From Clostridia bacterium (GTDB taxonomy: Bacteria > Bacillota > Clostridia > Oscillospirales > CAG-272), in the NCBI GenBank assembly GCA_017468385.1, contig JAFUIQ010000015.1, forward strand, positions 15,726-79,725: a stretch of DNA of 64,000 nt, written 5' to 3'. Positions 19,398 through 26,002 of the stretch are shown piece by piece. Positions within the stretch are counted from its first letter, which is position 1. Each line of letters opens with the position of its first letter. The notes beneath the pieces were generated by a model. The model was not told where the DNA came from. It saw only the letters and a program-made list of their open reading frames with translations, and searched no databases. Both the position numbers and the translations under genes were made by a program.

Positions 19398-19562
19398 AAT
19401 TTCGTTATCCTCCGTGTGATAATATATACAGTGTGTACGACCAAAAGAAAACAATATTTTCGTTTGGCCAAAGTTAATTATACACCTTACGAAAAAGAAT
19501 TGCAATATATAAATAAATTTTCTATAAACAAAACAATATTGACTTTTATGAGTGAAACTGTA

Positions 19563-19643: not shown

Positions 19644-20264
19644 ATGGAATTCAAAGTATTTCAGAAAGAGCTTGAGCTCCAGTCCAGAGGCTGGATCCCC
19701 ACTTTCCACGACGTATCCAAAGAGGTCGTTGAGATCGTAAAGGCATCCGGTATCAAAAACGGAACTGTTTGCATCGCTTCTCACCACACCACCTGCTCCG
19801 TTATGATTCAGGAGTGCTCCCACGACGTTGACACGTTCGATCTGGAGTTTTTGCAGCATGACCTGCTGGACATCATGCGTAAGCTGATTCCCGATTATAC
19901 CGATGAAGGCGACTACCGTCATCCCGGTCCGATCCACGCTCAGTTCGGCCGCTACGTAAACGAGCCCGGTAACTACACTTCTATGAACACTGACGGTCAT
20001 CTTCGCTCCGTATTCTTCGGCCGCAGCGAGACCATGACCATCAAGGATGGCGTTCTGGACGGCGGCGAGTTTGCTCACATCTACTTCATTGACTGGGACC
20101 ACGTTCGCGCACGTCACAGACAGCTGAACGTTACCGTTATGGGTACCACCGAGGATATCGGCGACAGAAAGTGGAACGGCGGCGAGACCATCAACACTCT
20201 CCGTAAGTTCACCGAGGAAGAGAAGGCTTACGATCCTCGCTTCGATCTGCAGCAGAAGAGATAA
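19644..20264 (+). CDS. YjbQ/UPF0047 family protein, copy 1 (long form)
   Basis: 206 aa with HHTTCS, NTDGHLRS and FIDWDHVRAR motifs. It carries a ~45-aa C-terminal extension. Confidence 0.75.
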   Translation: MEFKVFQKELELQSRGWIPTFHDVSKEVVEIVKASGIKNGTVCIASHHTTCSVMIQECSHDVDTFDLEFLQHDLLDIMRKLIPDYTDEGDYRHPGPIHAQFGRYVNEPGNYTSMNTDGHLRSVFFGRSETMTIKDGVLDGGEFAHIYFIDWDHVRARHRQLNVTVMGTTEDIGDRKWNGGETINTLRKFTEEEKAYDPRFDLQQKR

Positions 20265-20295
20265 TCCGAGTAATACATATTTTTAGGAGTCAACA

Positions 20296-21003
20296 ATGAA
20301 ACCGACTATCAGAACCCCCTATTTTGAAATCGGCACGAAGAACTACGTTTGGGGCGACAAGCTTCTGGAGTATGCTCTCGCTGCTGATAAGGCTGCTGAA
20401 AAGTACGACATCGACGTACTCTTCATCTGCCCCGCACTTGAGGTAAGACGTGTTGCTGAAAACACCAAGCACCTGAAAGTGTTCTGCACTTATATGGACA
20501 CCCTTTATCCCGGCCGTGGATGCGCAGACATCCTCCCTGAGGGTGTTAAGGACGCAGGTGCCATCGGCGTTATGATCAATCACTGTGAGAAGCCCATGAG
20601 CCTTCCCCAGATGAAGAAGACTATCGACCGTGCAAGAGAACTGGATATGCTCGTTTTCGCTTGCGCTGACACTTTGGACGAGGCTAAGGCTATCGCTCAG
20701 CTGCATCCCGACATCATCAATCCCGAACCCTCCGAAATCATCGGCGGCGGCAAGGGTGCAAGCCCCATGGCTTACGTAATGGATTCCATCAAGGCTATCA
20801 AAGCCGTTGATCCCTCCATTATGGTTGAGCAGGCTGCGGGCATTACCTGCGGTCAGGAAGTGTATGACTTCATCATGGCCGGTTCCGAAGCAGCAGGTGC
20901 CGCTTCCGGTATCATGAACGCAGAAGATCCCATCGCTATGATCGACGAAATGATCGCTGCCACCAGACGTGCGGCAGATGATCTGAAGAAGCAGAACGCT
21001 TGA
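20296..21003 (+). CDS. triosephosphate-isomerase family protein (archaeal-size, ~235 aa)
   Basis: VMINHCEKP corresponds to the TIM NHSE(R) His motif. INPEPSEIIGGG corresponds to the archaeal TIM EPPELIG catalytic-Glu motif. Confidence 0.7.
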   Translation: MKPTIRTPYFEIGTKNYVWGDKLLEYALAADKAAEKYDIDVLFICPALEVRRVAENTKHLKVFCTYMDTLYPGRGCADILPEGVKDAGAIGVMINHCEKPMSLPQMKKTIDRARELDMLVFACADTLDEAKAIAQLHPDIINPEPSEIIGGGKGASPMAYVMDSIKAIKAVDPSIMVEQAAGITCGQEVYDFIMAGSEAAGAASGIMNAEDPIAMIDEMIAATRRAADDLKKQNA

Positions 21004-21013
21004 GGTGAAAAGT

Positions 21014-21508
21014 ATGGTTTTCAGAGAGTCTTTTAAACTGCAGTCCCGTGATCGCGCTGTCAGCTTTCACGATGTAACCGATAAGGTAAAAGAACTTGCC
21101 GCAAAGTCCGGCATGAAGAACGCAATCGTTGTGGTTTACTCCCACCACACCACTTGCTCCGTTATCACCCAGGAATGCGCCTTCGATATGTCCATGACCG
21201 GTCTGGAGACCCTCCAGCAGGATTTGGTAAACGTATTCGAAGAGTGGATCCCCACCTGCCGTTATGAGGGTATGTATCTGCATCCCGGTCACAAGGCACT
21301 GGTGTTTGCCGAGGAGCACGGTGAGGACAACTTCGGCTGCCACAACACCGATGCACATCTGCGCTCCTCCATCATCGGCCGCAACGTAACCATCGTTATG
21401 GCAGACGGTGAGATGGATCTGGGTGAGTTCGGCCGCATTCACTTCATTGACTGGGACCAGACCCGCGCACGTCAGCGCACGGTTCAGGTTATGATCATCG
21501 GTGAATAA
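21014..21508 (+). CDS. YjbQ/UPF0047 family protein, copy 2
   Basis: The track starts at GTG 21005. I prefer the ATG at 21014 because GAGG lies 8 nt upstream. Motifs SHHTTCS, NTDAHLRS and FIDWDQTRAR match copy 1. Confidence 0.75.
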   Translation: MVFRESFKLQSRDRAVSFHDVTDKVKELAAKSGMKNAIVVVYSHHTTCSVITQECAFDMSMTGLETLQQDLVNVFEEWIPTCRYEGMYLHPGHKALVFAEEHGEDNFGCHNTDAHLRSSIIGRNVTIVMADGEMDLGEFGRIHFIDWDQTRARQRTVQVMIIGE

Positions 21509-21542
21509 TTACCGAAAATCTTAGTGAATAAGGAGATTCCCC

Positions 21543-22574
21543 ATGTTTGGATACAAAATGTCCGATTATGATAAAAAGGTCTATGCGGAACAGCTGGCGG
21601 ATTTCCTTCCCGATAAGATGATCGACGCCCACGCGCACATCTGGAAGAAGGAATTCGACCCCGCTACTACCGAGGAGCAGAAGGCTTGCGTAAGCTGGAC
21701 GCGTATGGTTGCGGAGGATTGCTCCATTGAGGATCTGATGCAGACCTACACGGATATGTTCCCCGGCAAGAAGATGGTTCCCGTGCTGATGGGCTGGCCC
21801 ATGACCACGCTTCCTTTGACCAACGAGTACACACGCGAAGCCGCAAAGAAAATCAATGTACCCGCATTCTACTGCACCGATTACTCCATGACCGCTGAGC
21901 ATCTGGAAGAAGCGGTCATCGGCGGCGGTTTCTGCGGTCTGAAGCCGTACCAGAACAACTGCGCTCCCTACATTCCCGAGAAGGAAATCCGTATCTACGA
22001 TTTCCTTACTCCGGAGCATCTGGAAGTTGCGAACAAGCACGGCTGGATCGTTATGCTGCATATTTCCCGTTCTCTGCGTCTCCGCGACCCCGTGAACCTG
22101 GCACAGCTGATGGAAATTGAGGAGAGATACCCCAATCTGAAGCTGATTGTCGCTCATGTTGGCCGTGCGTACTCCAAGGAAGATCTGGGCGATGCATTTG
22201 AAACCCTGAAGCAGACCAAGAACATGCTGTTTGACTTTACGGCAAACACACTGGATCTGGCTATGATCGAGTGCATTAAAGCCGTAGGCACCAAGCGCAT
22301 CATGTTCGGTTCGGACTTGCCCATCGTAAAGATGCGGATGTTCCGTACCACGGAGAACGGTGGTTTCTACATCAATAATGTGCCCCGTGGTCTGTACGGC
22401 GATGTTTCCTCCGATCCGCATATGCGTGAAACCGATCGCGAAGACATCACCAACTTCCTCTATGAAGAGCTTCTGGCATTCAAGCGCTGTGCTGCCGAAC
22501 TCTCCCTGTCCCGCGGGGATGTGGAAGATATCCTCTGCAACAATGCTGCCAAGCTTTTCGGTATGAACATCTGA
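21543..22574 (+). CDS. amidohydrolase-2 type metal-dependent hydrolase (TIM barrel)
   Basis: 343 aa. N-terminal metal motif IDAHAHIW, later VMLHISR and VAHVGRA. AGGAG RBS. Confidence 0.7.
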   Translation: MFGYKMSDYDKKVYAEQLADFLPDKMIDAHAHIWKKEFDPATTEEQKACVSWTRMVAEDCSIEDLMQTYTDMFPGKKMVPVLMGWPMTTLPLTNEYTREAAKKINVPAFYCTDYSMTAEHLEEAVIGGGFCGLKPYQNNCAPYIPEKEIRIYDFLTPEHLEVANKHGWIVMLHISRSLRLRDPVNLAQLMEIEERYPNLKLIVAHVGRAYSKEDLGDAFETLKQTKNMLFDFTANTLDLAMIECIKAVGTKRIMFGSDLPIVKMRMFRTTENGGFYINNVPRGLYGDVSSDPHMRETDREDITNFLYEELLAFKRCAAELSLSRGDVEDILCNNAAKLFGMNI

Positions 22575-22599
22575 TTTTTGAAAGGATACATACAAAGCT

Positions 22600-23985
22600 A
22601 TGAAAAAGATTAAGATTGGTTTTCTTCCGCTGTATGTAAAGTTGTACGATGATGTTGTCGCCAGCCTGCGTCCCAGACTGGAGGCCTTCTACGAGACCAT
22701 GGCGAAGAAACTGGAAGAGCAGGGAATGGACGTGATCCGCGCTCCTTTCTGCCGCTTGGAATCTGAATTCCTCGCCACTGTTGCTGATTTCGAGAAGCAG
22801 GGCGCGCAGTGCCTTGTTACTCTGCACATGGCGTACTCTCCCTCTCTGGAGTGTGTTAAGGCTCTGACCGAGACCACTCTGCCCATCGTAATCATGGACA
22901 CCACCGAAACATATGAGTTCGATCCTATGGTAGATCCCGGTGAGCTCATGTACAACCACGGTATCCATGGCGTAATGGATATGTGCAACCTGCTGCTTCG
23001 CAATAAGAAGCAGTATGCCATCGCAGCCGGCCACTACATCCACTCCGACGTAGTGGAGAGAACCTGCGGTTATGTGCGCGCGGCTGTTGCAGCTCATGCA
23101 CTGAACGGTATCAAGGTTGGTACCTATGGCGGCGAGTTCGCCGGCATGGGCGACTTCCAGGCAGGCCAGAGAGAACTGAAAGAGCGCTTCGGTATCGATC
23201 TGATTGAAGCCAATGACGAAGAGATCAAGGCTATCCGCGCCGCTATTACCGACGCGGAAGTGGATGCAGAAATCGCATTTGATGACGCCAACTACGAGCG
23301 TGCCGAGGTTCTCAATGAAGTAAACTACAGAGAGAACACCAAGGACTGCCTCGCTATCCGTAAGTGGATCGAGAAGAATGGCTTGAACGCCTTCTCTGTG
23401 AACTTCCTGAAGTTCACTGCAGAAACCGGCCTGAAGTCCGTTCCGTTCCTGGAAGCATGCAAGGCTATGACCCGCGGCATCGGTTATGCCGGCGAGGGTG
23501 ATGCTCTGGACGCAGCCATCATGGGCGCTATCTATAAAGCATACGATCAGGCATCTTTCTGCGAGATTTTCTGCCCCGACTGGAAGGGTAACTCCTTCAT
23601 GATCAGCCATATGGGTGAAATGAACTACGCAGTAAGCGATATCAAGCCCCAGCTGAACAACGTAGCATTTAACTACACCAATGCTGCTGCACCGGTAGTT
23701 GGTTACGCCAAGTTCCGCGGCGGCAAGGCTATCTACGCCAATGTTTGCCGTGATGCAGAGGGCTACTGCATGGTGATCACTCCCATCGAGATGATGGATG
23801 TGAAGGAAGACACCTTCAAGAAGTCCATGCGCGGTTGGTTCAAGCCCAGCACTACTGTGGCTGACCTCCTGGAAGGCCTCAGCACCTACGGTGCAACCCA
23901 CCACAGCCTGCTCATCTATGATGCAACGGTTGAGGAAATCGCATACTTCGCAAAACTGCTCGGCATGAGAGTTATCACTCTGTAA
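22600..23985 (+). CDS. L-arabinose/L-fucose isomerase family protein
   Basis: 461 aa. N-terminus KIGFLPLYVKLYDD resembles the AraA WFV.GSQ.LYG pattern. C-terminal YGATHHSLLIYD resembles the AraA GG.HHTV motif. Confidence 0.7.
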   Translation: MKKIKIGFLPLYVKLYDDVVASLRPRLEAFYETMAKKLEEQGMDVIRAPFCRLESEFLATVADFEKQGAQCLVTLHMAYSPSLECVKALTETTLPIVIMDTTETYEFDPMVDPGELMYNHGIHGVMDMCNLLLRNKKQYAIAAGHYIHSDVVERTCGYVRAAVAAHALNGIKVGTYGGEFAGMGDFQAGQRELKERFGIDLIEANDEEIKAIRAAITDAEVDAEIAFDDANYERAEVLNEVNYRENTKDCLAIRKWIEKNGLNAFSVNFLKFTAETGLKSVPFLEACKAMTRGIGYAGEGDALDAAIMGAIYKAYDQASFCEIFCPDWKGNSFMISHMGEMNYAVSDIKPQLNNVAFNYTNAAAPVVGYAKFRGGKAIYANVCRDAEGYCMVITPIEMMDVKEDTFKKSMRGWFKPSTTVADLLEGLSTYGATHHSLLIYDATVEEIAYFAKLLGMRVITL

Positions 23986-23998
23986 TCAACGCATAACG

Positions 23999-24030
23999 AA
24001 ATCCCCGCATCTTCGGATGCGGGGATTTTT
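23999..24030 (+). terminator. intrinsic terminator of the YjbQ-to-isomerase operon
   Basis: aaatccccgcatc-ttcg-gatgcggggattt followed by a T-run. Lies 14 nt after the stop. Confidence 0.85.
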
Positions 24031-24036
24031 ATACGC

Positions 24037-24067
24037 AAAAGAAGCATATCTGCGAGAGATATGCTTC
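24037..24067 (-). terminator. intrinsic terminator directly 3' of tRNA-Arg
   Basis: 10-bp stem gaagcatatc/gatatgcttc with a 7-nt loop, followed on the minus strand by TTTTG. Confidence 0.75.
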
Positions 24068-24142
24068 TGGCACCCCGAACCGGAATCGAACCGATATCTA
24101 AGTCTTAGGAGGACCTTGTTCTATCCGTTGAACTACCGGGGC
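24068..24142 (-). tRNA. tRNA-Arg (anticodon CCU)
   Basis: Hand-folded 75-nt cloverleaf: GCCCCGG TA GTTC AACGGATA GAAC A AGGTC CTCCTAA GACTT AGAT ATCGG TTCGATT CCGGT TCGGGGT G CCA. U8, G18G19, U33 and the T-loop TTCGATT are present. The 3' CCA is encoded. Confidence 0.9.
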
Positions 24143-24158
24143 CTATATAACGATGATT

Positions 24159-24187
24159 AGTATATCATAATTCATTCCAAAAATCAA
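24159..24187 (-). promoter_or_regulatory. sigma-A type promoter of tRNA-Arg: TTGATT-17-TATACT
   Basis: Minus strand: TTGATT (24187-82), a 17-nt spacer, then TATACT (24164-59). The tRNA 5' end lies 16 nt downstream. Confidence 0.6.
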
Positions 24188-24205
24188 GATGCAAAATGCT
24201 ATGAC

Positions 24206-24231
24206 AAAAGCCACGCACAAGCGTGGCTTTT
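24206..24231 (-). terminator. intrinsic terminator downstream of the Asn/Gln small ORF
   Basis: Stem gccacgc/gcgtggc with loop acaa, flanked by AAAA and TTTT. Lies 25 nt after the TAA at 24257 and upstream of the tRNA promoter. Confidence 0.7.
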
Positions 24232-24256
24232 GGTACCCTTAGTGGCAAAACGGAAA

Positions 24257-24415
24257 TTATCGGTTGTTGCTGTTCTGGCTGTTGCTCTGGTTGTTGTTCT
24301 GCTGTTTGTTCTGGTTGTTGTTCTGCTGATTCTGCTGTTTGTTCTGATTGTTGTTCTGCTGGCTCTGCTGTTTATTCTGGTTGTTGTTCTGCTGATTCTG
24401 GTTCTGGTTATTCAT
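24257..24415 (-). CDS. candidate small ORF: 52-aa Asn/Gln-rich repeat peptide (coding status unproven)
   Basis: Below the track size cut-off. ATG 24415 to TAA 24257 encodes MNNQNQNQQNNNQNKQQSQQNNNQNKQQNQQNNNQNKQQNNNQSNSQNSNNR. There is no earlier in-frame start back to the stop at 24476-8. A terminator hairpin lies ~25 nt downstream. The SD-like GGAG is about 14 nt from the ATG, which is suboptimal. Confidence 0.35.
   Translation of the reverse strand: MNNQNQNQQNNNQNKQQSQQNNNQNKQQNQQNNNQNKQQNNNQSNSQNSNNR
24299..24397. repeat. three tandem 33-bp repeats (ctgctgtttgttctggttgttgttctgctgatt and variants) with degenerate partial copies on both sides
   Basis: Copies lie at 24299-24331, 24332-24364 and 24365-24397. 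Copy 2 has 3 mismatches to copy 1 and copy 3 has 1 mismatch. There are no spacers. Confidence 0.9.
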
Positions 24416-24556
24416 ATTTATACCGCTTTCTCCCCATAAATTTCTGAAGGGTTCCGGGGAAGGAAACCTTCTGTTTCATAGCGATTTATACCGTAGTATA
24501 ATCGTTAAAGGGTACATGGATAGTGTGCGCACATTCTGTTGAATTATTCAGGAATA

Positions 24557-25825
24557 TCACTCCAGATACTGCTTCAGATTGAACAGAATCTGTGCAGTCT
24601 GCGCTCTTGTCAAAGCAGAGTAAGGAGCAATACTGCCGGCACCGGTGCCGCGCATGATCCCCAAATCGTTCAGCGCGTACAGCGCGCTCTGCGCCCATGC
24701 GGGAATGCTGTCATTGTCCGCAAACAGGGATACATTGACCGGCACTTCCGCGCCAATGATGTTGTTGAGAATGACTGCGCTCTCCGCTCTTGTGATGGAG
24801 TCACCGGGACAGAAGCAGATCAATCCGTTGTCTTCCCGGCCACGAATAATACCGGCCCGATAAGCCGCTTGCACATACGGCTTATTCACATCGAGAATGT
24901 CGGCATCGTCAGCAAATTGGGTTTGTTTGCATTCACCAAGATCCTTCGTCCCCAGAAGCTTCATCACCATTACCAGAAATTCTTCCCGTGTAACCAGATC
25001 ATCCGGCGAAAAGACAGCCGCTTCTTCGTTTGTTTTATATTGCATGACTCCGTCCGATGCCATTTCAATCGCTGCGCTGTGCGCCCAATGCTCGCTCATA
25101 TCCGAGAAGACCAGTTTACTGTTCTTTCGGGAGATCTGAATGTTTGCCTCCGTTATATCCGAATAGTTTCCATAACTATCCCGAACCCGATAGGTGAAGC
25201 TGTCACTGCCCGAACAGCCTACGTAAGGCGTATAGCGGAAATCACCGTGGGAGGAATCATTCAGAATCAAAAGCCCCTTCTTGGGGTATTCTACAATTTC
25301 GTACTGCAGAGTATCTCCCTCAGGATCATAGGCATCCAGCGTGCCGAAGCAGGTAATATCCTTTTGCGTCCAGGCGGCTGCCGTATCACCTGCGTTTGTC
25401 ACTGTGGGTGGAAAATTGATTTCGTCGGTGATTTTCACAAGACACATCTGTGCGTATCCGTCGTTTACCGAAAAATAAAAAGATGCATTTTCCACGCCGG
25501 CGGCGGGAACAAATTTCAAACTATCGATTGCCTTTTCGGAAACGGATTGATTCGTCGCCACAGGCACGGATCCGAGATATAAAACACCATCGGACGGCGA
25601 GGGAAGGGAGCATATTTTTACGGTACGAACTCCTTTGACTGAGGAAGCATTTTGAAAATCCACCATGCTGAACTGTACGCCGGAATGCGTCGTTCCGGTT
25701 TTAATCAGCGTAGCATCCGATGCAATAATATCCAGCGCGGGGGAGAGCAGCGCAGCATGCACGTGAGGGATAACAAGTGAAGAGATTAGAATTAACCCAA
25801 GAACACATTGAATTGTTTTTTTCAT
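24557..25825 (-). CDS. secreted cell-wall protein: cadherin-like/Ig-like domain plus three C-terminal SLH repeats
   Basis: 422 aa. Signal peptide MKKTIQCVLGLILISSLVIPHVHA. A YDPEGDTLQYEIV..FTYRVRDSYGN repeat. SLH-like segments FSDMSEHWA.., FADDADILDVNKPYVQAAY.. and FADNDSIPAWAQSALYAL. Confidence 0.8.
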   Translation of the reverse strand: MKKTIQCVLGLILISSLVIPHVHAALLSPALDIIASDATLIKTGTTHSGVQFSMVDFQNASSVKGVRTVKICSLPSPSDGVLYLGSVPVATNQSVSEKAIDSLKFVPAAGVENASFYFSVNDGYAQMCLVKITDEINFPPTVTNAGDTAAAWTQKDITCFGTLDAYDPEGDTLQYEIVEYPKKGLLILNDSSHGDFRYTPYVGCSGSDSFTYRVRDSYGNYSDITEANIQISRKNSKLVFSDMSEHWAHSAAIEMASDGVMQYKTNEEAAVFSPDDLVTREEFLVMVMKLLGTKDLGECKQTQFADDADILDVNKPYVQAAYRAGIIRGREDNGLICFCPGDSITRAESAVILNNIIGAEVPVNVSLFADNDSIPAWAQSALYALNDLGIMRGTGAGSIAPYSALTRAQTAQILFNLKQYLE

Positions 25826-25973
25826 TTCTGATCCTTTCAGCGGAGTATGCTGAAATCCTTTCTGATTGATTTCGGATTTAGTATCGCGCCGAAAAAAACA
25901 AATATGCAGAAAAATACAAATCGTAAAAGAATGTTCACAATTTGGCGAAACTCCGTGGGATGAAACTCAATTC

Positions 25974-26002
25974 TTGACACAAGCATAGGTAAATAGTATA
26001 AT
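25974..26002 (+). promoter_or_regulatory. sigma-A type promoter of hslO: TTGACA-17-TATAAT
   Basis: TTGACA 25974-79 and TATAAT 25997-26002, about 30 nt before the hslO ATG. Confidence 0.7.

Follow-up and report, generated by a model that had tools for sequence, protein, structure and literature searches.

What kind of gene specifies a protein made almost entirely of asparagine and glutamine (N/Q), and what might a bacterium use it for? We addressed this question for a 52-codon open reading frame (ORF) in a 64,000-nt stretch of DNA, the window, that covers positions 15,726-79,725 of the forward strand of contig JAFUIQ010000015.1 (assembly GCA_017468385.1) from a Clostridia bacterium (Oscillospirales; CAG-272). 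We describe the anatomy of this gene, its conservation, the constraint on its frame and composition, its codon bias and its promoter motif. On this comparative evidence, the minus-strand ORF is best read as one that is very probably translated into a microprotein, and expression in the forespore appears to be the best single hypothesis for its timing, which we favour to a modest degree. Whether the product is a translated, forespore-expressed protein that resembles the spore proteins of the small, acid-soluble type (SASPs), and perhaps the equivalent in clostridia of the Gln-rich gamma-type SASP, is in our judgement an evenly balanced proposal.

A free-standing N/Q reading frame and its alleles

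Translation of the ORF yields MNNQNQNQQNNNQNKQQSQQNNNQNKQQNQQNNNQNKQQNNNQSNSQNSNNR, which contains 24 Asn (19 AAC and 5 AAT codons), 19 Gln (all CAG), 3 Lys, 4 Ser, 1 Met and 1 Arg. Asn or Gln accounts for 43 of the 52 residues (83%), no hydrophobic residue follows Met1, the residue set is limited to M, N, Q, K, S and R, and the net charge is approximately +4. The predicted tryptic peptides include QQSQQNNNQNK, QQNQQNNNQNK, QQNNNQSNSQNSNNR and MNNQNQNQQNNNQNK. The tandem array within the ORF was scored by Tandem Repeats Finder at period 33 with 90% matches, no indels and a score of 180, and overlapping periods of 9, 12, 15 and 24 bp are also present in it. An in-frame TGA lies 5' of the ORF at 24478..24476, and ATG, GTG and TTG are all absent between this stop and the start codon. 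On the other side, an intrinsic terminator hairpin starts 25 nt past the ORF stop and is the dominant element of the local fold; a simple terminator scan did not list this hairpin (24231..24206). Its stem is invariant over alleles, with a variable loop (ttgt, gttt, aaac, aaat or agac), and the stem of allele L179 carries one compensatory change, from A-U to G-C. Beyond the terminator, tRNA-Arg(CCT) lies on the minus strand at 24142..24068. A preliminary description of this DNA had reported the ORF, its composition, the 33-bp repeats, the upstream stop, the terminator, a palindrome and the neighbouring tRNA-Arg, and each of these proved to be present where it had been placed. The description had also given the tRNA a separate promoter, which we found as a sigma-70-like TTGATT-17-TATACT with a TG element at 24187..24159.

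The same description knew of no family that the peptide matches, and our searches agree. An hmmscan of the window peptide against Pfam (E up to 1) gave no family, nor did NCBIfam, and the eight members of the wider family described below likewise found no Pfam family at E up to 10. Rfam 15 run over 23000-26000 gave only the tRNA above threshold, all other matches having E values of at least 0.09, far below gathering scores. A both-strand scan of approximately 2.5 Mb of unrelated DNA for ORFs of 26-96 aa with an N+Q content of 55% or more gave none outside the family.

Four other contigs, on which the neighbours are the same, carry a called gene for the exact window peptide. Two of these contigs differ from the window by approximately 1% at the DNA level; the sole within-species difference in the ORF is a synonymous AAA to AAG change at 24371. 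Further alleles were recovered with homologues of the flanking isomerase-like gene as anchors. This gave ten alleles in the position between the SLH surface-protein gene and tRNA-Arg, with nine lengths (33, 35, 41, 41, 43, 48, 52, 55 and 58 aa). A 33-bp unit is repeated in the window, and a 30-bp unit in sister alleles (10 aa, NQNQNKNQQ[S/N]). All alleles begin with MNNQN and end with ...N(N/S)NR-stop, with residues limited to N, Q, K, S and R in between. Among the homologues of the flanking genes with 70-58% identity (L054-L058), synteny is lost and the N/Q ORF is absent.

The preliminary description had considered that the repeat might be restricted to one strain, or that homologues might carry frame-breaking indels. 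We found the ten alleles instead, the N/Q frame is never broken despite nine length changes, and alignable positions vary mostly synonymously in that frame. Part of this frame preservation is automatic, because all internal periods of the array are multiples of three and slippage alone would hold the frame, and the evidential weight therefore falls on point substitutions and conserved termini. The 397 codons of the alleles comprise only eight types (CAG, AAC, AAT, AAG, AAA, AGC, CGA and AGA) and include neither a stop nor a foreign residue; 58% of the single-base changes from this repertoire would yield one or the other. Codons 2, 3 and 5 alternate between AAT and AAC among alleles with no change of amino acid, and most alleles have CGA for the terminal Arg, which L051 and L052 encode by AGA. 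The proposal of a discrete, free-standing, coding N/Q micro-ORF is thus supported by orthologues, frame and substitution pattern.

These data bear on the possibility that the array is a neutral minisatellite that expanded and is open in one frame by chance. Such a minisatellite would fit the differences in copy number and unit length between close relatives, as well as periods that let slippage keep the frame. We consider it very improbable, however, as the element persists at the locus across lineages in which the flanking intergenic DNA has strongly diverged, the non-repeat termini, promoter footprint and terminator are conserved, other Clostridia carry similar genes at four further loci, and the 397 codons are free of stops and foreign residues.

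The opposite strand was chosen by gene callers in L179 (4093-4407), L180 (4093-4407) and L182 (3998-4288), all plus strand, where a 96-104-aa Leu/Val-rich ORF was annotated opposite the N/Q ORF; in L052, nothing was annotated at the N/Q locus. These calls, and an in-phase antisense frame that is stop-free in eight of nine family members, are the grounds for supposing that a small membrane peptide, encoded by the plus-strand Leu/Val-rich ORF (24230..24439), is the true product of the locus. The openness of that frame is automatic, however, because the antisense codons imposed by the codon set (CTG, GTT, ATT, CTT and TTT) contain no stops. Its TTG start lies inside the terminator hairpin, L108 has a stop in the frame, and the promoter, Shine-Dalgarno sequence and conserved termini are all on the minus strand. 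The antisense calls are therefore an annotation hazard and not evidence of an antisense gene, and a plus-strand gene is extremely improbable.

Relatives at other genomic positions

HMMER-type searches are blind to these sequences, so a degenerate back-translation of NNNQNKQQ was used as a pattern on one genome per species. Among the 46 matches were five stand-alone ORFs (41-64 aa) from Clostridia and Bacillota metagenome-assembled genomes (MAGs), namely L013, L017, L032, L040 and L049. A pattern scan of metagenomes with NQNKQQN (at least 120 rows) gave one new member, L108, among the matches listed. Most clostridial pattern matches had another source, the short N-terminal N/Q tract of a conserved, housekeeping-looking protein of approximately 545 aa; in L006, L009, L011, L019, L023, L027 and L043 (Lachnospiraceae and related MAGs), this protein begins ..NNNQNKQQD[L/V/I]NQLLKVRREKL...

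The six further members contain 58-77% N+Q (slightly lower in L108), a few K, S, D or E residues and a charged tail. Each has a hairpin 3' of the stop, and in all six the Shine-Dalgarno pairing is significant (-10 to -17.5 kcal/mol, 4-8 nt from the AUG). A leader motif, GAAAGCGG, is common to the window, L040 and L049. Together with the alleles, these genes form a family of solitary genes for microproteins (33-64 aa, 58-83% N+Q) in gut and rumen Clostridia that had not been described before.

Relatives were found by degenerate DNA patterns and synteny only. A phmmer search of 5.8 billion proteins with the window peptide, an exhaustive phmmer search of 1.84 billion representatives and an hmmsearch with an eight-member alignment (E up to 10) returned nothing, because the composition correction in HMMER removes such sequences. 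Nine family peptides were not on record in an exact look-up in a clustered collection, and a scan of viral contigs gave zero family members.

L013 and L108 lie upstream of rlmL-rdgB, L040 and L049 lie between obg/mini-RNase III and rsmF, L032 adjoins pcrA, and L017 adjoins prfB-secA. The gene neighbourhoods of these synteny groups revealed no functional partner; the contexts differ and are all housekeeping. As the other members sit elsewhere, the position beside tRNA-Arg, which the preliminary description had noted, is incidental. This also bears on whether the ORF encodes a leader peptide that senses the charging of Asn-tRNA or Gln-tRNA and controls terminator read-through into tRNA-Arg. A short ORF dominated by two amino acids directly before a terminator and a downstream gene has the layout of such a device, and a partial copy of the terminator 5' arm (GCCAC) lies upstream of the terminator. 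However, tRNA-Arg has its own conserved promoter and no logical tie to Asn or Gln supply, in minimum free energy (MFE) and centroid folds, neither the window nor the L051 transcript forms an antiterminator that would compete with the terminator, and other members precede unrelated or oppositely oriented genes (rlmL, rsmF, pcrA and prfB). Control of this kind is highly improbable.

Promoter, leader and codon use

We examined the DNA upstream of each family member for forespore-type promoters. A two-block matrix (TGAATA, 14-16 nt, G.AA(T/A)A(A/C)TA) was made from 44 mapped C. difficile sigmaF/sigmaG promoters (Table S6, PMC3789822), whose sigmaF and sigmaG consensus elements resemble each other and those of B. 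subtilis (PMC3789822). It was run on the 160 nt 5' of each ORF, with sequence windows from the same loci as the null. The best matrix site lay upstream of the ORF at a sensible distance from the start in eight of eight lineages, with a Fisher's combined P of 3.7e-8 (in silico); six lineages scored 15-21 bits at empirical P values of 0.004-0.015, near the floor of the test. The matrix selected the same sites as a regular expression (G[ACT]AT[AG]-N17/18-[AC]A.A.TA), which matched upstream of seven of the eight lineages against 0.07 expected. Strict B. subtilis-style expressions had matched L013 alone and were replaced by the mapped-promoter matrix. A scan for sigma-70-type promoters 5' of the ORF on its own strand detected none.

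Comparison of alleles defined the promoter more closely. The -35 element reads TGCATA, TGTATA or CGTATA in sister alleles, varying chiefly at a position that the matrix tolerates, and the -10 element is CACA[C/A]TA in all alleles that cover the region. The spacer is constant at 17 nt in five distinct alleles and its sequence is wholly different in each. Across these five alleles, the footprint is [T/C]G[A/C/T]ATA, 17 unrelated nt, CACA[C/A]TA, 5 variable nt and an invariant GTACCCTT. The perfect palindrome TGTGCGCACA of the preliminary description is present (24533..24524); it overlaps the spacer and the -10 of this conserved footprint and is not an operator standing by itself. Table 1 lists these and other features of the locus.

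Table 1. Positions of the N/Q gene and its predicted control elements in the window
Feature	Position	Strand	Remarks
-35-like element TGAATA	24545..24550	minus	Best site of the sigmaF/sigmaG weight matrix
Promoter spacer, 17 nt	24528..24544	minus	Contains most of palindrome TGTGCGCACA
-10-like element CACACTA	24521..24527	minus	Part of the matrix site
5' arm of mRNA-closing helix, GTACCCTT; predicted transcript 5' end	24508..24515	minus	6 nt past the -10
Leader hairpin GAAGGUUUCC-UUCC-CCGGAACCCUUC, C/U-rich top	24446..24471	minus	RNAalifold consensus of six alleles
Invariant purine block GGGGAGAAAGCGG	24423..24435	minus	Sole candidate ribosome-binding site; conserved in all alleles
N/Q microprotein ORF, 52 codons	24257..24415	minus	ATG at 24415, TAA at 24259..24257; single ORF in the ORF listing
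Tandem array in the ORF	24297..24400	minus	3.2 copies of a 33-bp unit (11 aa, NNNQNKQQxQQ); Tandem Repeats Finder
3' arm of mRNA-closing helix, AAGGGTAC	24233..24240	minus	Abuts the terminator
Intrinsic terminator AAAAGCCACGC-TTGT-GCGTGGCTTTT	24206..24231	minus	Sequence reading and fold

Forespore-type sites also occur near the gene and elsewhere on its contig. One, of 18.8 bits (AGCATA-15-GAAATAATA), lies on the same contig as the window in L186, at approximately 19430-19460 (minus), and precedes an operon in which two polysaccharide deacetylase genes stand in tandem; only one other site in this 22-kb locus reaches 17 bits (43.8 kb of scanned positions). In C. difficile, the polysaccharide deacetylase gene pdaA has a sigmaG-dependent promoter (Table S6, PMC3789822), and the deacetylase-operon site may be a hint, from within the same genome, of a forespore regulon. 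Another is a 15.2-bit match (TGCATA-15-GCGATACTA) at 25908..25879 (minus), 53 nt 5' of the SLH/Big_9 surface-protein gene (start 25825) that adjoins the N/Q gene.

Alleles of the window clade share a leader of approximately 100 nt with several predicted structures. The RNA 8-mers GUACCCUU (24515..24508) and AAGGGUAC (24240..24233) are perfectly complementary, and both are conserved in alleles with diverged flanks, with variation in the 5 nt that precede the 5' arm. In MFE folds of the window (z = -4.7) and L051 transcripts, the helix they form encloses the entire mRNA (shuffle P values of 0.008 and 0.004), and in L179, where the 3' arm is GAGGGTAC, pairing is retained through G-U. We rejected this closing helix as a family trait, as it is limited to the window clade and absent in the six other members. 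The fold of the minus-strand transcript, a check raised in the preliminary description, thus gave an ORF body nearly free of predicted structure, a dominant terminator and this 5'-3' helix. Pairs of the leader hairpin are kept through G-C/A-U/G-U and G-C/U-A changes and also form in the single folds of the window and L051. The C/U-rich top of the hairpin, UUCCUUCCCC, is complementary to an invariant GGGAG block 13-19 nt before the AUG, so that anti-Shine-Dalgarno-like sequestration is possible; the closing helix may be an end-clamp that stabilizes the mRNA. That these features of the window clade stabilize the mRNA or control its translation is speculation. A 23-codon upstream ORF (ATG at 24479) overlaps the N/Q start in the window and is not conserved as such in L051.

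Over eight lineages, 108 Gln codons are CAG and one is CAA, against a locus background of 51-87% CAG (combined P 8e-9), and AAC makes up 19 of the 24 Asn codons of the window ORF (background 0.49). A shift to major C/G-ending codons is the expected product of translational selection on a highly expressed gene. The choice of Asn and Lys codons varies freely while Gln stays CAG. Avoidance of slippery A-runs was considered as a cause of CAG exclusivity and rejected: the base that follows has no bearing on which Lys codon is used (P 0.75), and tracts of at least five A occur at the expected frequency.

Could the locus specify a non-coding RNA, A/C-rich and unstructured, whose task is to titrate an RNA-binding protein, with the ORF incidental? 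The nearly unstructured ORF body, the weak Shine-Dalgarno sequence of the window clade and the retention of CAG against synonymous CAA, which hints at a constraint at the nucleotide level, all fit such an RNA. However, a conserved ATG and stop enclose an open frame in 16 independent or allelic versions, six members have a strong and well-spaced Shine-Dalgarno sequence, the CGA to AGA switch keeps Arg, AAC/AAT and AAA/AAG vary while residues stay, and Rfam has no match. We consider a non-coding RNA quite improbable. This RNA, the plus-strand Leu/Val-rich ORF and a Cys/Ser-rich ORF were the alternatives offered in the preliminary description, and all are disfavoured because the start codon, Shine-Dalgarno sequence, promoter and codon bias fall on the N/Q strand and in the N/Q frame.

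Beside the N/Q gene lies a cluster of sugar-metabolism genes at 19644-23985 (+) that comprises two YjbQ/UPF0047 genes, triose-phosphate isomerase, an amidohydrolase and an L-arabinose-isomerase-family gene. The protein encoded by the last of these scores far under the AraA cut-off, and the cluster is retained in the sister lineage. The region from the isomerase-like gene to tRNA-Arg is variable among relatives, with an integrase fragment and a 435-aa gene in L181 (4055-5745) and L183 (1674-3364). In the same spot, an 89-aa hydrophobic, membrane-like ORF is present in L051 (5438-5707), L053 (3958-4227) and L184 (3455-3724) and absent from the window and L052. This variability is consistent with insertion next to a tRNA.

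A possible spore role and comparison with known systems

The forespore-type promoter, the SASP-like traits, the absence of gamma-type SASPs from clostridia and the gelling of the C. difficile spore protein GerG together led us to propose that the gene encodes an SASP-like, N/Q-only protein of the spore core. In its anatomy, the gene is a monocistronic unit consisting of a forespore-type promoter, a structured leader of approximately 100 nt, the ORF and a strong intrinsic terminator. Its product would most likely serve, as gamma-type SASP does, as a store of amino acids and amide nitrogen that has no enzymatic activity, is quickly degraded and supplies outgrowth. As the Asn-rich repeats of GerG gel spontaneously, the protein may also help to form the gel or glass state of the dehydrated spore core. 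Slippage would expand and contract the repeat array, and selection would act on composition, reading frame and both termini and not on a fixed sequence. More tentatively, and with doubt prevailing, there may be a hidden clostridial class of forespore-made N/Q spore proteins that accumulate in the core as a dense store of amide nitrogen and amino acids and/or as a matrix that forms a gel or glass, and that fill the gamma-SASP role. If real, such a class would have been overlooked because profile searches filter out sequences of so biased a composition and gene calls sometimes fall on the other strand.

Several points weigh against this proposal, in addition to the partly automatic preservation of the frame. 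Translation, forespore timing, location and function are all deduced from sequence. The window promoter site scores 11.5 bits (empirical P 0.06) and the L051 site 9.7 bits (P 0.16); by score alone, the window site is unremarkable, because the 64-kb window contains 87 sites of at least 11 bits, and it is unusually distant, its -10 ending at -105 from the start. The concern voiced in the preliminary description about the Shine-Dalgarno sequence stands for the window clade, in which GGGGAGAAAGCGG pairs weakly with a generic 16S 3' tail (-8.8 kcal/mol), no better than shuffled sequence. Ordinary codon bias is not strong enough to account fully for the near-absence of CAA. HMMER similarity among family members is not significant under its composition correction, and the members may be convergent instead of homologous. 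Approximately 40 annotated genes of the window and approximately 20 kb of extra flank are devoted to housekeeping and sugar metabolism and include no dedicated sporulation gene, the sole sporulation-related match being a RodA/FtsW/SpoVE-family protein that scores best as RodA, so that the host is at most a putative spore-former. Finally, the cleavage motif of the germination protease (GPR) contains Glu and hydrophobic or small residues. No GPR-type motif is present in the window peptide, nor could one be, as the peptide holds only M, N, Q, K, S and R; the analogy with gamma-type SASP is therefore one of role and not of mechanism.

These points leave some room for a real N/Q microprotein unrelated to spores, such as a hydrophilin of stress or stationary phase, an LEA-like (late embryogenesis abundant) protein or a condensate former, expressed from an ordinary promoter or that of another alternative sigma factor. 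All of the coding evidence fits such a protein equally well, the score of the window promoter is modest, and no sporulation genes were seen in approximately 85 kb around the locus. In single-sequence mode, AlphaFold predicts one long helix, as in many hydrophilins, with an unstable predicted local distance difference test score (pLDDT; 55-83 over five models) that we did not use as structural evidence. We regard a non-spore microprotein as plausible but rather unlikely, as the forespore two-block motif occurs in eight of eight lineages with a matrix trained on independent experimental data, no sigma-70-type promoter was detected 5' on the ORF strand, and the G-ATA element of the -35 is conserved in alleles whose spacer is scrambled.

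If the forespore hypothesis is correct, the protein would be among the most extreme natural amide-rich polypeptides of bacteria, and a minimal system for studying Q/N behaviour, whether storage, gelation or amyloid, in a dehydrated, glass-like cytoplasm. Spores drive transmission in gut and rumen settings. More generally, compositionally extreme microproteins are systematically under-annotated, as HMMER searches of billions of proteins came back empty and some alleles are mis-stranded.

How does the protein compare with known systems? The preliminary description called it prion-like, a term that its composition bears out and that composition only justifies. The Q/N-rich prion-like domains of yeast prions, and the candidate domain of Clostridium botulinum Rho, are attached to a functional protein. 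The likeness to them lies in an Asn/Gln-dominated composition; here, by contrast, the low-complexity segment is the whole protein. LEA group 3 proteins, hydrophilins and tardigrade CAHS proteins consist of repeats, are extremely hydrophilic and for the most part unfolded, and have a propensity to form helices; an 11-residue repeat is typical of LEA group 3. The window allele also has an 11-residue repeat, but this period is not conserved (10 residues in sister alleles), the protein is amide-rich instead of charged, and no homology was detected.

GerG (CD0311) has Asn-rich repeats whose copy number varies among C. difficile strains, probably by slippage, and which are predicted to be disordered and prion-like (PMC5241399). 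The N/Q ORF similarly has Asn-rich tandem repeats that vary in copy number (30- or 33-bp units, alleles of 33-58 aa). Purified GerG gels spontaneously, and its repeats are dispensable for its germination role, a separate functional region being present; GerG is much the larger protein, its predicted prion-like domain alone covering residues 43-270, has approximately 30% Asn together with much Met and Pro, and is restricted to C. difficile (PMC5241399). By contrast, the 52-aa N/Q protein is low complexity throughout, with no separate functional region. CD0311 is listed in the sigmaE-controlled, mother-cell set (Saujet supplement), whereas the N/Q promoter motif is of the forespore and not the sigmaE type.

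SASPs are smaller than 100 aa, sigmaG-dependent, lineage-variable and easily gained or lost (PMC10730256, PMC7649253, PMC3533761), and every C. difficile SASP gene requires sigmaG (PMC3789822). The N/Q protein has no Pfam or NCBIfam match to alpha/beta-type SASPs and lacks a conserved non-repetitive core. The minor SASPs of Bacillus (SspG, SspJ to SspP and Tlp) are also sigmaG-dependent, with a narrow and patchy distribution and ready gain and loss (PMC3533761). Like them, N/Q genes are solitary and their products are very small and hydrophilic. The minor SASPs are separate sequence families with no match to the N/Q protein, however, and none has been described as N/Q-only or as having variable tandem repeats. 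The Pfam profile SASP_gamma/SspE also has no match to the N/Q peptides, in a search whose sensitivity is limited by the HMMER composition correction. By sequence, then, the N/Q protein appears to be a member of no known SASP family.

The parallel proposed here is with gamma-type SASP (SspE) of Bacillales, which is expressed from a forespore sigmaG promoter and thought to feed outgrowth (PMC10730256, PMC7649253). Both proteins are small, highly hydrophilic, Gln- and Asn-rich non-enzymes with internal repeats, the spore role of the N/Q protein being a proposal only. Unlike gamma-type SASP, the N/Q peptide is 83% N+Q, contains no Gly, Ala, Glu, Phe or Thr, and comes from Clostridia and not Bacilli. 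All clostridial genomes examined lack gamma-type SASP, which is viewed as a reservoir of amino acids, and no clostridial protein is described as its functional counterpart in these sources (PMC10730256, PMC7649253, PMC3533761). Several clostridia have only two recognised SASP genes (PMC3533761). The abundant gamma-type SASP of Bacilli thus leaves a gap in clostridia, where it has no homologue (PMC3533761), and forespore-type N/Q microproteins, if they are what we propose, would be concrete, testable candidates for its role in the spore-formers of the gut and rumen.

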